Positions 7,651 through 13,053 of a stretch of 64,000 nucleotides of DNA are shown here, piece by piece. The notes under the pieces were generated by a model. The model saw nothing but the letters and a program-made list of their open reading frames with translations. It was not told the DNA's origin and did not search any database. The translations under genes were made by a program, and so were the position numbers. Each line of letters opens with the position of its first letter. Within the stretch, counting starts at the first letter, position 1. The DNA is taken from contig JBAYHL010000001.1 in assembly GCA_041666185.1 (NCBI GenBank), positions 69,073 through 133,072 on the forward strand. The letters are read 5' to 3'. The DNA is from Patescibacteria group bacterium (lineage in GTDB: Bacteria; Patescibacteriota; UBA1384; UBA12157; JAENIV01).

Positions 7651-9783
7651 ATGCCTAATTCACCAGAATTTAGTTTTGCCAATATAGCTGAAGGAGGATC
7701 GGGAGGAAAAGAGCCGGTTCAACTCCAAGAAGACCCAAAAACAGAGCTGCCCAAAGCTCCGATTTTGGAAGACGAAGATTCTATATCGTATCTTGGAGTT
7801 AAGCTAGAGAAATCCCATGTCTCCAGTGCTTTCGTGCCGGAAAGAGAAAAATACACCGACTATATCAATGATAAATTTTCACTTGAATTGCAACAAAAAA
7901 TTGCGGTCTCGATGCTTCAGGGTGATCCGATACTTATTGAGGGCGGAACAAGTATTGGAAAAACTACCACTGTTAGAAAGATGTGCGCCGAGTTGGGATA
8001 TGAAGTGCATTACGCAAACCTAAACGGCGCGACTGATGTTGAAGATTTGATGGGCAGATATATCCCCAATCCTCACAAGACCAATCCCGAGGATCCTGAA
8101 TATGTTTTTGCTGACGGCAAGGTTACTTCGGGGCTTCGCAAAGAAGAAGGGAAAAAGAAAATCATCATTTTAGATGAGTTCAATGCTTCAGCTCCAAATA
8201 TCTTGATTCGTCTTCATGAAGTAATAGATGCACTAGAGCGGGGCGGCGAAGTTGTTTTATCCGAGGATGCTTCAGAAGTTGTGCATGTTAGTCATGAAGA
8301 TACAAAGATAATTGCTCTTACAAATCCTCCAGGAAAGGGTTATTTTGGCAGAGAACCTCTTGATCCTGCGCAGTTACGAAGATGGGTTTACCAAAAGGAA
8401 GTTACTGAACTACCGGATAGCACATTTGCTTTTTCAACAGAGGCTTTGTTTGGCATTGGCAGTAGAACTGAAGAAATTCCTGATAGTCTTTATTTAGATT
8501 CACCCGATCAAGCTATTTCACGCGAACAACTAGCAGAAATCTCTGGAATGAAAGAGATACTAGACAAGTATCAGGAATTTCACAAAGCAGCAAAGGAACT
8601 CATTAAACAGAGAATGGTTGCTGCAGACCAGCCCCAGCCGTTTACTTTTGACGACAGAATGGAACCACACAGAATTAGTCGGTTTGTTGCACGTTTTTAT
8701 AATGGCGATATCAACGAAACTTTTCAAAGAGGCCTACGATATTATTATGTTAATAAGCTAGAAAATTCAGAGGACAGACAAAAACTTGAGGAATTGATTA
8801 GTCATGTCTCGTGTACCCCTGCCGTAGACTCTAGAAGACGGGCTATCGGCGAACCTGAAACAAAGACTCCGGAAAGCGCACTAAAAACAAGAGCTGAAAA
8901 AGAGATCGAAGATATAATGTCCAGTTCTGAAATACCAGATTCAGTTAAGGCGGCACTTGCCGGAAAAGAGACGCCACTATCCAGCGAGATATTAGAACAA
9001 ATGAAGGAAGCTAAAGAGATTTTTGGGAATGATTTTCTTGGTCCAGAGGAAGTCAAAGCCGCTTTCTTGGATCAAGTGGAGATCTCTGAAGTTCCATCGA
9101 TTCCATTCTCGAAAGAAGAGCTTGAAAAAGCTCGCGAGCTGGAGCAAATGCTTATCTTACGAGTTGATAAAGCCAAGGATGGTTCAGACCTCACTATGGA
9201 AAAAATTCATGGCCTTCTTAATGGCAAAATCAAAGATGAGGCAAAAGTTTTATACAGCGTCGATTGGTATAAAGATGAAGAATTCTATAAAAAAGATAAG
9301 CCGGAAGTTACTTGGGCGCTTGTCTCCAAAGAAGCTGTGCCGGATTCCTCTGATAAAAATTATCTTGAACAAACTGAAACATTAGCCAACTATTTAAGAA
9401 ACGAAGTGTTTAAAACATTGATAATGCCAGCCAAATACGGTGAAGCCCTCAGGGAATTCGAAAAGGAAAAAGCTTCAATTGCCAGGATTGTTGAAAGCGA
9501 CAAAGAATCAGAATGGAAAGAGGCAGCTCGCAAGCTTGAGGCATTGAAGCTTAATCAACTTACTCGGCAATCCCCAACCGAAGCGCTATATGATTTAATA
9601 GTTCGCTATCAGCAGACAGGCGAGAGATTGATGGAAAATATGTATACTTGGACTAAGCGCCGTGATTCCGGTGGCGGCCTGGTCTGTGTTGGCCGCTTCG
9701 AGTCCGTTGGTGTCCGCGTCGGCGGGGGCAGGCCTGGCGATTGGAGTGGCATTCTTGGCGTTTCTTTCTCCCGCAGTCTATGA
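7651..9783 (+). CDS. MoxR/AAA_5-type AAA+ ATPase fused to a C-terminal DGR variable C-type-lectin/FGE-like domain (DGR target 1)
   Basis: It has Walker A GGTSIGKT, Walker B IIILDEFNASAP and a MoxR-like sensor region. The last about 40 codons form VR1 and differ from the template repeat at adenines. Confidence 0.75.
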   Translation: MPNSPEFSFANIAEGGSGGKEPVQLQEDPKTELPKAPILEDEDSISYLGVKLEKSHVSSAFVPEREKYTDYINDKFSLELQQKIAVSMLQGDPILIEGGTSIGKTTTVRKMCAELGYEVHYANLNGATDVEDLMGRYIPNPHKTNPEDPEYVFADGKVTSGLRKEEGKKKIIILDEFNASAPNILIRLHEVIDALERGGEVVLSEDASEVVHVSHEDTKIIALTNPPGKGYFGREPLDPAQLRRWVYQKEVTELPDSTFAFSTEALFGIGSRTEEIPDSLYLDSPDQAISREQLAEISGMKEILDKYQEFHKAAKELIKQRMVAADQPQPFTFDDRMEPHRISRFVARFYNGDINETFQRGLRYYYVNKLENSEDRQKLEELISHVSCTPAVDSRRRAIGEPETKTPESALKTRAEKEIEDIMSSSEIPDSVKAALAGKETPLSSEILEQMKEAKEIFGNDFLGPEEVKAAFLDQVEISEVPSIPFSKEELEKARELEQMLILRVDKAKDGSDLTMEKIHGLLNGKIKDEAKVLYSVDWYKDEEFYKKDKPEVTWALVSKEAVPDSSDKNYLEQTETLANYLRNEVFKTLIMPAKYGEALREFEKEKASIARIVESDKESEWKEAARKLEALKLNQLTRQSPTEALYDLIVRYQQTGERLMENMYTWTKRRDSGGGLVCVGRFESVGVRVGGGRPGDWSGILGVSFSRSL
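9655..9780 (+). repeat. DGR variable repeat VR1
   Basis: About 125 nt align to the template repeat (11428-11552). Roughly 22 substitutions all fall at template adenines, plus a single non-A difference. The 3' end CTTGGCGTTTCTTTCTCCCGCAGTC is IMH-like. Confidence 0.8.
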
Positions 9784-9811
9784 GCCTTTGAACTTTGGTA
9801 TTTGAGACTTT

Positions 9812-9834
9812 GATTCCGCCGAAGGCGGTCGACA
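9812..9834 (+). other. GC hairpin (CCGCCGAAGGCGG) downstream of VR1, typical DGR target-site hairpin / terminator
   Basis: The same hairpin recurs after VR2. Confidence 0.6.
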
Positions 9835-9866
9835 TAAAAAATTTTATACAATTAAAGGCAAAAAAT

Positions 9867-11606: not shown

Positions 11607-11984
11607 CTAATTTTTTGTAGTTTTTATCCAGCCACCAAGCATTTTACCGATCTCAATTAAAGGCTCGGAAAGTCGTAAAAATTTTTTGTTATCAATTGCC
11701 TTGATATCAAGCAATGCCTTAATTAAAGTTTGCAATATTTTAAGTTTTGTATCGACGGATTGTAAAACGGCGAGACGATTTTGCCCGTATTTTGCGTTTG
11801 CTTCATACAGCATTTCTAAAATATTTAAAGCTGTATTTTCGCATTTGGCCCCAATTGTATACCTATCCTTCTTAGGAATAGTCTCAATAGTGCTGTATAA
11901 ACACAAGTAAAATTGGTAGGTTTTATGGATAATCGCGATATCGCTGAAAGTAGTGTCATTTTGCATCAGAACCTCTATGATCAA
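11607..11984 (-). CDS. avd: DGR accessory variability determinant (Avd)
   Basis: The 125-aa sequence aligns with bAvd of Bordetella phage BPP-1 (IPKKDRYTIG..., ...EIGKMLGGWIK). It is on the opposite strand and overlaps the 5' end of the reverse transcriptase gene. Confidence 0.7.
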   Translation of the reverse strand: MIIEVLMQNDTTFSDIAIIHKTYQFYLCLYSTIETIPKKDRYTIGAKCENTALNILEMLYEANAKYGQNRLAVLQSVDTKLKILQTLIKALLDIKAIDNKKFLRLSEPLIEIGKMLGGWIKTTKN

Positions 11985-12599
11985 ATAATATCTAAAGAAA
12001 ATTTATTAATATCTTGGCAGGAATTCAAATTAGGCAAGGGTAGTAAATGCGATGTTCAAGTGTTTGAGCATGATTTAGCTGAAAATTTATTTTCTCTTCA
12101 TAATGATTTGAAAAATAAAACATATCGACACGGACATTATACCTCATTTTATATTCATGATCCAAAATTAAGACACATTCATAAGTCTAGCGTCAGAGAT
12201 CGAGTTTTACATCATGCGGTAATGAGAATGATCGAACCAATATTTGAGAAAAATTTTATTTTTGATTCATATTCTAGCCGAGAAGGCAAAGGCACCCATA
12301 AAGCTGTTTTAAGATTAAAAGAGTTCACATGGAAACTCTCCAAAAACAATACTAAAATAGTCTGGGCATTAAAATGCGATGTTAGAAAATTTTTTGATTC
12401 AGTCGATCATCAAATCATTTTTGAGCTTATAAAAAAGAAAGTTTCCGACCCCGATACTTTGTGGCTGCTAAAAAACATCATTGATAGCTACCCTATGCGT
12501 CTCGATTTGCGCCGCAAATCGAGAGAGAGAGAGAGAGAGAGAGAGAGAGAGAGAGAGAGCCTAAGGCTCCGCCTTCGGCCGCGGAACTCCTCTTGGTAA
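11913..12599 (+). CDS. DGR reverse transcriptase, N-terminal part (RT motifs 1-4), ending in the (GA)n-encoded (RE)n tract
   Basis: Motifs include HDPKLRHIH, SVRDRVLHHA and KCDVRKFFDSVDH. The frame terminates after a poly-Arg/Glu tract. Confidence 0.7.
   Translation: MVGFMDNRDIAESSVILHQNLYDQIISKENLLISWQEFKLGKGSKCDVQVFEHDLAENLFSLHNDLKNKTYRHGHYTSFYIHDPKLRHIHKSSVRDRVLHHAVMRMIEPIFEKNFIFDSYSSREGKGTHKAVLRLKEFTWKLSKNNTKIVWALKCDVRKFFDSVDHQIIFELIKKKVSDPDTLWLLKNIIDSYPMRLDLRRKSRERERERERERESLRLRLRPRNSSW
12521..12559 (+). repeat. (GA)n microsatellite, 39 nt, inside the RT gene
   Basis: Read directly. Confidence 0.9.
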
Positions 12600-12612
12600 T
12601 TTAACAAGTCAG

Positions 12613-13053
12613 TTGTTCTCAAATATATATCTCAATCCGCTCGATCAGTTTATTAAAAGAGACCTTAAAGAAAAATATTACATTCGCTATGCTGATGATT
12701 TTGTGATTTTGAGTTGTGATCGGGATCATTTAGAGAATCTTATCCCAATATTAAGGTCATTTCTTACTGATGATCTTAAGCTAGAATTGCACCCAGATAA
12801 GATTATCTTGCAAAAATGGAGCCAAGGAATCGACTTTCTAGGATATGTAATTTTTCCATACCATACTGTGCTACGAACAAAAACGAAACAAAGAATGATG
12901 AGAAAAATAAGGAATAATTGCTATCTTTTGAAAGAAGGCCGTATGTCTAGAGAGGCTTTTAATCAAGCTCTGCAATCATATATAGGAATTTTGAAACATT
13001 GCCGCTCTCACGTGTTACGCGATAAGATTGAAACCATCGTTAAAGAAGTCTGA
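12613..13053 (+). CDS. DGR reverse transcriptase, C-terminal part (PLGNLTSQ DGR signature, YADD catalytic motif, thumb); frame +1 relative to N-terminal part
   Basis: The frame is open from 12565 (AFGRGTPLGNLTSQLFSNIYL...) and includes YADDF. Confidence 0.7.
   Translation: MFSNIYLNPLDQFIKRDLKEKYYIRYADDFVILSCDRDHLENLIPILRSFLTDDLKLELHPDKIILQKWSQGIDFLGYVIFPYHTVLRTKTKQRMMRKIRNNCYLLKEGRMSREAFNQALQSYIGILKHCRSHVLRDKIETIVKEV

Follow-up and report, generated by a model that had tools for sequence, protein, structure and literature searches.

The 64-kb window analyzed here, a continuous stretch of a Patescibacteria metagenome-assembled genome (MAG) held at NCBI with the proteins MFA6492604, MFA6492607 and MFA6492609, carries a diversity-generating retroelement (DGR). 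We are highly confident that this element is of the type standard in the candidate phyla radiation (CPR; Patescibacteria), that it has recently been active on two target genes, and that its reverse transcriptase (RT) is off in the window genome. Information flows in an adenine-restricted manner from an invariant template repeat (TR) to two variable repeats (VR1 and VR2). A first-pass annotation had already called a DGR here, and our analysis confirms that observation and supports its interpretation; what it had not noticed is that avd lies on the minus strand and that the element reaches upstream to the start of a target gene at 7651 and to a VWA-domain partner at 5042 (Table 1). As a further instance of a well-described class of DGRs that dominates CPR genomes, the locus adds little by its existence, and it is the repeat-borne on/off state of its RT that is possibly new.

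The three repeats of about 125 nt seen by the first-pass annotation were recovered as one direct-repeat family (Table 1). We found 24 mismatches between TR and VR1, of which 23 fall on TR adenines (the exception, as previously remarked, being a single position, C11516 in TR against G9743 in VR1), while all 17 internal mismatches between TR and VR2 fall on TR adenines. The 125-nt TR contains 32 A, and the corresponding binomial probabilities are P = 4e-13 for VR1 and ~1e-9 for VR2. Pooling the two VRs of the window with those of a related strain (L084, ~90% nucleotide identity) placed 81 of 84 TR/VR mismatches on TR adenines and showed that, of the 32 TR adenines, 29 have changed in one or more of the four VRs. 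Read in the target frame, the adenines lie at codon positions 1 or 2 in 30 of 33 cases, including the AAC and AAT codons noted earlier (five and four, respectively). Identity between VR1 and VR2 is 86% over the whole repeat and rises to 98% at non-adenine positions, compared with 60-74% in the paralogous DNA immediately 5' of them, in line with the first-pass remark that the VRs are more alike than their flanks.

The repeats also share a 3' end resembling an initiation of mutagenic homing (IMH) sequence, which reads CTTGGCGTTTCTTTCTCCCG, then C in both VRs or A in TR, then AGTC. The shared end had thus been recognized correctly, but its variable base is C/A and not G/A as first given; this one fixed VR(C)/TR(A) difference lies at 11547. 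Each VR is followed by the same GC hairpin, CCGCCGAAGGCGG, again as the first-pass annotation had it, with a 5-bp stem and a GAA loop 38 nt beyond the end of VR homology, and the copy after VR1 is unchanged in L084 although its flanks have diverged.

The decisive evidence came from comparing the window with a near-clonal assembly, L109 (ENA contig ERZ27249449:k141_651985), which matches window positions 9628-23053 at 99.8% over 13,426 nt; in this comparison and in that with L084, consensus assemblies were used. Only 23 substitutions separate the window from L109, of which 21 lie within the 250 nt of VR and 20 of these at TR-A positions. VR1 accounts for 10 (nine at TR-A positions, the tenth at 9743, where L109 carries the template's C) and VR2 for 11, all at TR-A positions. 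The two substitutions outside the VRs are at 9838 (intergenic) and at 12562 (T in the window and G in L109, giving TAA and GAA, respectively), and the sole indel is one of 4 nt in a GA tract (19 vs 17 units); TR and positions 13,054-23,053 show no difference. The system therefore worked very recently in this population, since the near-clonal assemblies differ almost only at adenine-templated VR positions and the VRs have turned over with TR and flanks constant. The first-pass annotation had proposed looking for within-population variability at such sites, and this comparison does so in effect, with 20 of 23 substitutions found there. With nearly every substitution in 13 kb being an adenine-templated VR change, the pair is an unusually clean natural demonstration of DGR action.

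Within the VRs, the differences between the window and L109 are unevenly placed. In VR1 they are confined to the 5' half (9671-9716) and position 9743, while the mutated 3' half (9717-9779) is otherwise identical; in VR2 they occur only in the central and 3' part (10788-10825).

The comparison with L084 extends the same pattern over a longer divergence. TR is identical at 125 of 125 positions in surroundings that have diverged by 10% (P ~2e-6), differences in the two VRs number 22 and 17, with 21 and 16 of them at TR-A positions, and the non-adenine VR positions are homogenized (0-1 differences vs ~9 expected). Together, the invariant TR, the VR differences at TR-A positions and the homogenized remainder indicate that homing continued after the two lineages split. 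The ratio of nonsynonymous to synonymous substitution rates (dN/dS) against L084 is 0.05-0.15, at dS ~0.4, for the VWA protein, a 136-aa protein, both targets 5' of their VRs, a GIY-YIG gene and the N-terminal part of the RT; the RT has thus been under purifying selection for most of the time since the split.

The first-pass description of a bAvd-like protein was borne out: Avd passes the NCBIfam model NF033474 and Pfam bAvd (Table 1), scoring 65.8 bits against PF22296 (cutoff 40), while a phmmer search of Avd against the Protein Data Bank (PDB) returned no match. All 77 of 77 related loci have avd immediately upstream of the RT and on the other strand. The avd (-) and RT (+) coding regions overlap head-to-head by 42 nt both in the window (11925-11966) and in a Berkelbacteria MAG (L001, 8001-8042), and each gene's promoter must therefore sit inside the other gene. 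The RT carries the PLGNLTSQ and YADD motifs, as reported in the first pass, and its closest PDB relative is 8ub7_A, a 328-aa RT with IGSLTSQ and YMDD (E 3e-45), which is probably the Bordetella bRT, to judge by the motif match. Group II intron RTs in PDB match at ~1e-18, that is, 27 orders of magnitude more weakly. In an alignment with 17 CPR homologues (56-75% identical), the RT keeps every residue that is invariant among them, and all 80 genome matches, like the source MAG, are Patescibacteria; a metagenome scan for near-identical RT copies gave none above 70% identity. The closest named relative of the RT is that of L001 (GCA_026397175.1; 8001-8984), 72-75% identical by BLASTP and alignment, which is annotated as 'partial' and stops ~40 residues short of its homologues.

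These results also bear on the idea that the locus is not a DGR and that paralogous repeats have been homogenized by gene conversion beside an unrelated retron or group II-type RT. In its favor, the best NCBIfam match of the RT is a group II RT/maturase model, although below its cutoff (161 vs 300 bits), and no NCBIfam model names a DGR RT, the collection being without one. However, gene conversion can neither restrict 81 of 84 differences to positions with adenine in one copy nor hold a non-coding copy invariant while the coding copies vary, Avd passes a DGR-specific model, and the RT combines PLGNLTSQ with a best PDB match to an IGSLTSQ/YMDD RT by the margin given above. The adenine-restricted mismatches and the comparison with L109 refute this idea, to which we assign a negligible probability.

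For a DGR, the paradigm established in Bordetella suggests how the parts would work together. The non-coding TR would be transcribed, RT and Avd would copy the TR RNA into cDNA while misincorporating opposite template adenines, and the cDNA would replace the homologous VR at the 3' end of the two target genes in a 3'-anchored manner. This replacement would be guided by the shared IMH-like 3' sequence and probably also by the GC hairpin 38 nt downstream. Several observations weigh against this account or limit it. A promoter scan for TR gave no candidate above background, and a terminator-like hairpin stands between TR and RT. The post-VR hairpin, with its 5-bp stem at 38 nt, has a shorter stem and a slightly more distant position than the functional phage hairpins, whose stems of 7-10 bp lie at 4-34 bp (Guo 2011, PMC3240598). 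The 5'-half pattern in VR1 is unlike the prediction of a simple single 3'-anchored homing event; only 27 nt of the L109 contig precede VR1, whose consensus there may be a mosaic drawn from several variants in the population. Population variation itself is deduced from consensus assemblies.

We next turned to the RT gene, whose frame break at 12521-12564 the first-pass annotation overlooked. The N-terminal part runs in one frame from an ATG at 11925 to a TAA at 12597-12599, and the C-terminal part, with PLGNLTSQ and YADD, lies in the +1 frame, which has no open stretch before 12565. A (GA)19 tract causes the frameshift, a TAA at 12562-12564 interrupts the correct RT frame, and none of the three frames stays open downstream of the tract; every possible length of the GA tract in the window runs into a stop codon. 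Consistently, the NCBI annotation of the source MAG calls only a 146-aa C-terminal RT fragment (MFA6492609.1), and an exact look-up of the N-terminal fragment found no match in the protein collection. L109, by contrast, encodes an intact 374-aa RT (P0242, in the 90%-identity cluster of the window's C-terminal fragment) with an in-frame (GA)17 and GAA (Glu) in place of TAA. The RT gene of the window genome is thus off, and an intact allele exists in a near-identical genome. Because (GA)19 is out of frame and a G-to-T change three bases downstream creates the TAA, the VRs of the window genome are presumably frozen unless RT is supplied or restored.

The tract sits in a native surface loop of variable length that joins RT motifs 3 and 4, as seen in the alignment of the 17 CPR homologues (one of which, P0012, reads ...KPRERERAIGSAARGIPLGNLTSQ), and it encodes (Arg-Glu)n, or (RE)n, in every frame. 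Seven further CPR RT loci carry a GA tract of 4 to 11 units at the equivalent site, all in frame, and two contigs end inside the tract: that of L084 (at least 12 units) and that of L094, an independent metagenome contig with a 70%-identical RT (at least 13 units). Within the 64-kb window, (GA)19 is the sole dinucleotide run of at least six units. A near-perfect palindrome abuts the tract and also occurs in the RT loops of L015, L084, L094 and L109; as a combination, the palindrome (GATTTGC..GCAAATC), (GA)n and a GC-rich segment are confined to the RT loops of some CPR RTs. The 17-homologue alignment, in which the loop is native, rules out the GA/hairpin segment (~70 nt) as a foreign insertion such as a miniature inverted-repeat transposable element, an intron or a bypass element. 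The palindrome was likewise rejected as a dispersed mobile element, having no second copy in the window and occurring elsewhere only in RT loops. A 12-mer after the tract, GCCTTCGGCCGC, is common to the window (12500-12600) and L015 (6700-6800), whose RTs are ~52% identical, and is read as AFGR in one and PSAA in the other. Its translation in different frames suggests that past slips of the tract have been offset by downstream compensating indels.

How should the break be explained? One explanation is that assembly or sequencing went wrong at a low-complexity repeat and that the DGR of the window genome is intact and fully functional. PCR stutter and consensus errors readily arise in dinucleotide tracts, the two contigs that end inside the same GA tract show that assemblers have difficulty there, and the RT is pristine outside the 45-nt lesion region, with every invariant residue kept. 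Yet an artefact would need two independent changes, a length change of 4 nt and a G-to-T substitution, and stutter yields no substitution. The break is also in the public record, since the NCBI annotation calls just the C-terminal fragment, and the perfect agreement with L109 across the rest of the 13.4 kb outside the VRs argues for high consensus quality. We therefore regard an artefact as unlikely; the presence of an ON allele ((GA)17, GAA) and an OFF allele ((GA)19, TAA) in otherwise identical genomes argues that the lesion is real variation.

Alternatively, the full RT might be made by programmed recoding, for instance by a +1 ribosomal frameshift at CUU-CGG-C (12573-12579), downstream of the TAA, into the PLGNLTSQ frame. 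Frames 0 and 1 are both open across 12565-12596, a GC-rich hairpin lies at the site, and CUU followed by the rare CGG codon resembles the CUU-UGA-C slippery site of prfB. However, the L109 allele is in frame with (GA)17 and GAA, as are the seven other tract-bearing RTs, which makes the window state a derived mutation and not a conserved recoding signal, and the local fold is no more stable than shuffled sequence (z = -1.1). Recoding is accordingly very improbable. Stop-codon reassignment was ruled out as well, because TAA ends 29 of 39 long open reading frames (ORFs) and is the genome's main stop codon.

If the lesion is real, (GA)n could be a selected contingency locus that switches the DGR mutator on and off reversibly and at high frequency, with the window caught in an OFF phase. 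The tract differs (17 vs 19 units) between genomes otherwise identical outside the VRs, so that ON and OFF frames are both observed, and of the three differences outside the VRs in 13.4 kb, two fall in this 45-nt stretch. Long pure tracts persist at dS ~0.4 (L084) and in a 70%-identical RT (L094), seven other CPR RTs carry an in-frame tract at the same loop site, and no other long dinucleotide repeat occurs in the 64 kb. Against this, just two complete alleles have been seen. The OFF allele also has the TAA and resembles decay more than a clean switch; slippage alone was ruled out as a way to restore the window allele, a stop codon being met at each tract length. A neutral, expansion-prone microsatellite is plausible, since (RE)n is encoded in every frame and the loop is permissive, and there is no precedent, as our literature search found no paper tying DGRs to repeat-mediated phase variation. 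Selection for such a locus is thus a serious possibility that falls somewhat short of an even chance.

The specific form that we propose, and hold with slightly greater reserve, is a built-in contingency switch in which (GA)n in the permissive RT loop, near a palindrome that may promote slippage, would stochastically toggle the mutator (ON at n = 14, 17, 20...). If so, cells could hold on to a variable-protein sequence that serves them well and start diversifying again at a later time, which would amount to hypermutation of a hypermutator. Natural on/off control of DGRs is poorly understood, and a hypermutable RT repeat found in ON and OFF states in one population provides a concrete hypothesis. 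There is also a caution for annotation, as a split RT may make automated DGR callers miss such an element or count it as dead.

The two targets belong to a conserved cassette. Target 1 (MFA6492604.1, 'AAA family ATPase') carries AAA_5 at residues 94-244 (Pfam 1.1e-12), with Walker A GGTSIGKT and Walker B IIILDE, and in PDB it matches Midasin (1.5e-35) and, more weakly, CobS and NorQ. Target 2 is homologous to the C-terminal ~270 aa of target 1. The VWA protein is the partner of the AAA+ target; its dN/dS against L084 is 0.07, and the pair is syntenic in L002, L003, L014, L084 and L094. The 136-aa protein encoded between them had no match in Pfam, NCBIfam or PADLOC, and it has homologues at the equivalent position in L003, L084 and L094 (dN/dS 0.055). 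The whole cassette of VWA protein, small protein, AAA::VR target and short-paralogue::VR target recurs in L002, L003, L014, L084 and L094, and in L001 a transglutaminase-core protein replaces the VWA protein. PADLOC gave no convincing defence-system assignment for the cassette. The four cassette proteins look cytoplasmic, as hydropathy analysis revealed no hydrophobic segment and no signal peptide in any of them.

The first-pass annotation had likened the VR protein ends to C-type lectin (CLec)/FGE scaffolds. An alignment of 77 sequences served to model target 2 with AlphaFold2 (mean predicted local distance difference test score, pLDDT, 92.2; predicted TM-score 0.79), and we found the model closest to the DGR variable protein TvpA, followed by CarF, PvdO, pFGE and the FGE-like domains of SenA, OvoA and EgtB. 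The AAA-linked CPR variable domain is therefore predicted with high confidence to have a CLec/FGE-like fold with the VR at its C-terminus, in agreement with the earlier likeness, and the variable residues fall in the last ~40 residues of the fold. On the basis of domain content and the literature, the CLec tips may bind variable intracellular ligands, with the AAA+/VWA pair transducing the signal or remodeling a partner.

The surroundings of the element have a mobile character. Upstream lie TraG-D_C (85-906), Replic_Relax (1020-1808) and DUF3768 (2253-2672) genes, and GC content is 39-44% around the cassette (window 1-12000) vs ~35% for the remaining window. The homologous region of L084 runs on into type IV secretion system pilin, TrbC and VirB4-like genes, and only ~0.5 kb stands there in place of window 1803-4944, with its genes for DUF3768, a short-chain dehydrogenase and an ACP-like protein; housekeeping genes such as RNase Y and BipA follow from ~16.8 kb onward in the window. 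The DGR thus probably rides on an integrated conjugative-type island with a variable cargo segment. Between VR2 and TR, 20-nt inverted repeats (11025-11044 and 11321-11340) bracket a GIY-YIG gene (dN/dS 0.15). Beyond the window itself, only L084 and L109, which belong to its lineage, have the gene here, while L094 and L001-L003 lack it in otherwise syntenic loci. The gene is thereby ruled out as a nuclease conserved among DGRs; it may have been recruited as a nuclease or have arrived as a small mobile insertion.

Directly 3' of the RT (13109-15461), we found a 106-aa ORF on the minus strand without a family match, a 365-aa HNH endonuclease (weak PADLOC PtuB-type HNH matches) and a PLD-like nuclease (PLDc_2; weak MkoC/DrmC matches). 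All three ORFs are identical in L109, and L003 also has a PLDc_2 gene beside its DGR; the group may be a defence or mobility module. An Rfam scan detected no RNA family in the DGR region, while a LOOT RNA (RF03000) unrelated to the DGR lies at 62954-63077 on the plus strand (60.6 bits vs a gathering score of 46.4). An exact look-up of target 1 and of P0121 gave no match in the contig index.

Table 1. Features of the DGR and its cassette, by position in the window
Feature	Position	Strand	Remarks
VWA-domain protein (CobT/MIDAS-like)	5042-7216	+	MIDAS motif DLSGS; Pfam CobT_C 4.4e-18, VWA 4.7e-07; PDB CobT and Midasin MIDAS
136-aa protein	7231-7641	+	Between VWA and AAA+ genes; conserved cassette member
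Target 1, 710 aa	7651-9783	+	N-terminal Midasin/MoxR-like AAA+ ATPase fused to C-terminal CLec-type variable domain
VR1	9655-9779	+	3' end of target 1
GC hairpin after VR1	9818-9830	+	Candidate target-recognition hairpin/cruciform
Target 2, 329 aa	9867-10856	+	Short paralogue without ATPase; helical N-terminal part and predicted CLec/FGE-type variable domain; ends in VR2
VR2	10728-10852	+	3' end of target 2
GC hairpin after VR2	10889-10901	+	T run follows; terminator-like
GIY-YIG nuclease-family gene, 94 aa	11051-11335	+	Pfam GIY-YIG 4.3e-11
TR	11428-11552	+	Non-coding; A-rich at codon positions 1 and 2 of target frame
Terminator-like bidirectional hairpin	11560-11593	both	A-tract, stem-loop and T-tract between TR and avd 3' end; fold prediction
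avd, 119 aa	11607-11966	-	NCBIfam NF033474 DivGenRetAVD 87.8 bits (cutoff 80); Pfam bAvd 5.9e-18; MFA6492607.1
DGR RT gene, interrupted	11925-13053	+	PLGNLTSQ 12589-12612; YADD 12688-12699
Near-perfect palindrome TCTCGATTTGCG-C-CGCAAATCGAGA	12500-12524		In RT loop
(GA)19 microsatellite	12521-12558	+	In RT loop; (GA)17 in L109
TAA nonsense codon	12562-12564	+	In correct RT frame; GAA in L109

Compared with known systems, the element is closest to the CPR DGRs with AAA::CLec targets. The architecture with inverted avd (B3) was found in 90% of CPR DGRs, and the CPR 'UVR4' targets (target category g1) match the Midasin AAA domain, their fold being left undecided as 'unknown fold' (Wu et al. 2018, PMC5758913). 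The same survey discarded more than half of its candidate DGRs for stops and truncations (PMC5758913), and a fusion of CLec domain and AAA ATPase is the commonest target architecture of CPR DGRs (Dore et al. 2024, PMC10907252, citing Paul et al. 2017). The window shares with these systems the Patescibacteria host, the order of TR, inverted avd and RT (77/77 loci), multiple targets per element, and a target with an N-terminal Midasin-like AAA_5 and a C-terminal VR, and there is no difference in kind. Added here are the predicted CLec/FGE-like VR domain, the conserved VWA partner with its small protein, and the long GA microsatellite in the RT loop. Structure prediction thereby assigns a CLec/FGE fold to the AAA-linked CPR variable domain that the large survey had listed as 'unknown fold'.

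The DGR of Bordetella phage BPP-1 (mtd, avd, TR, brt) has in common with the window element the adenine-specific transfer from TR to VR, a CLec-fold protein whose gene has the VR at its 3' end, Avd, an RT with I/LGxxxSQ and YxDD, a one-base difference between the IMH and IMH* (in the window, the IMH-like 3' ends of VR and TR), and a GC hairpin downstream of the VR, in the window a candidate recognition element. The hairpin resembles the element required in BPP-1 (PMC3240598), with a shorter stem and greater distance from the VR in the window. Unlike the phage DGR, the window element lies in a chromosomal or island context of a CPR bacterium, has two apparently cytoplasmic targets instead of a tail fibre, carries avd on the opposite strand, and has a terminator-like hairpin between TR and RT. 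Its RT also differs from 8ub7_A, which has ~4 residues where the window RT has the ~30-aa (RE)n loop insertion. TvpA of Treponema denticola is a cell-surface lipoprotein, whereas the window targets lack a signal peptide. The target 2 model is structurally close to TvpA (PDB 2Y3C), yet the two share only 11% sequence identity. As accessory gene, the DGR of Treponema has one of the HRDC type (PMC5758913).

The GA tract recalls the simple sequence repeat contingency loci of phase-variable genes in Neisseria, Haemophilus and Campylobacter, being a long pure coding repeat whose length differs between near-identical genomes and sets the reading frame. It differs from them in that the gene encodes a mutator enzyme and not a surface structure, and in the additional nonsense mutation of the OFF allele.

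Finally, the cassette resembles the MoxR-vWA 'ternary' conflict systems, in which the vWA protein carries a DGR-diversified FGS domain (Kaur et al. 2020, PMC7159879); CPR genomes were left out of the multicellularity statistics in that study (PMC7159879). As in the VMAP ternary systems (PMC7159879, PMC10907252), a MoxR-type AAA+ ATPase, a vWA protein and a DGR-diversified FGS/CLec domain occur together and all appear cytoplasmic; the MoxR-like ATPase and the vWA protein are co-encoded in the window and syntenic in at least five genomes. In contrast to those systems, it is the AAA+ ATPase and not the vWA protein to which the CLec domain is fused, the RT is a member of the CPR clade instead of clade 5, and domain scans including PADLOC found no VMAP domain, peptidase, TIR or other effector in the cassette neighbourhood. 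The likeness is one of functional analogy, not of membership. By this analogy the CLec domain would sense a ligand and the ATPase would transduce the signal, and the constant company of the variable domain, namely a MoxR-type ATPase, a VWA protein and a small protein that all look cytoplasmic, suggests that ligands are sensed inside the cell and speaks less for surface adhesion.

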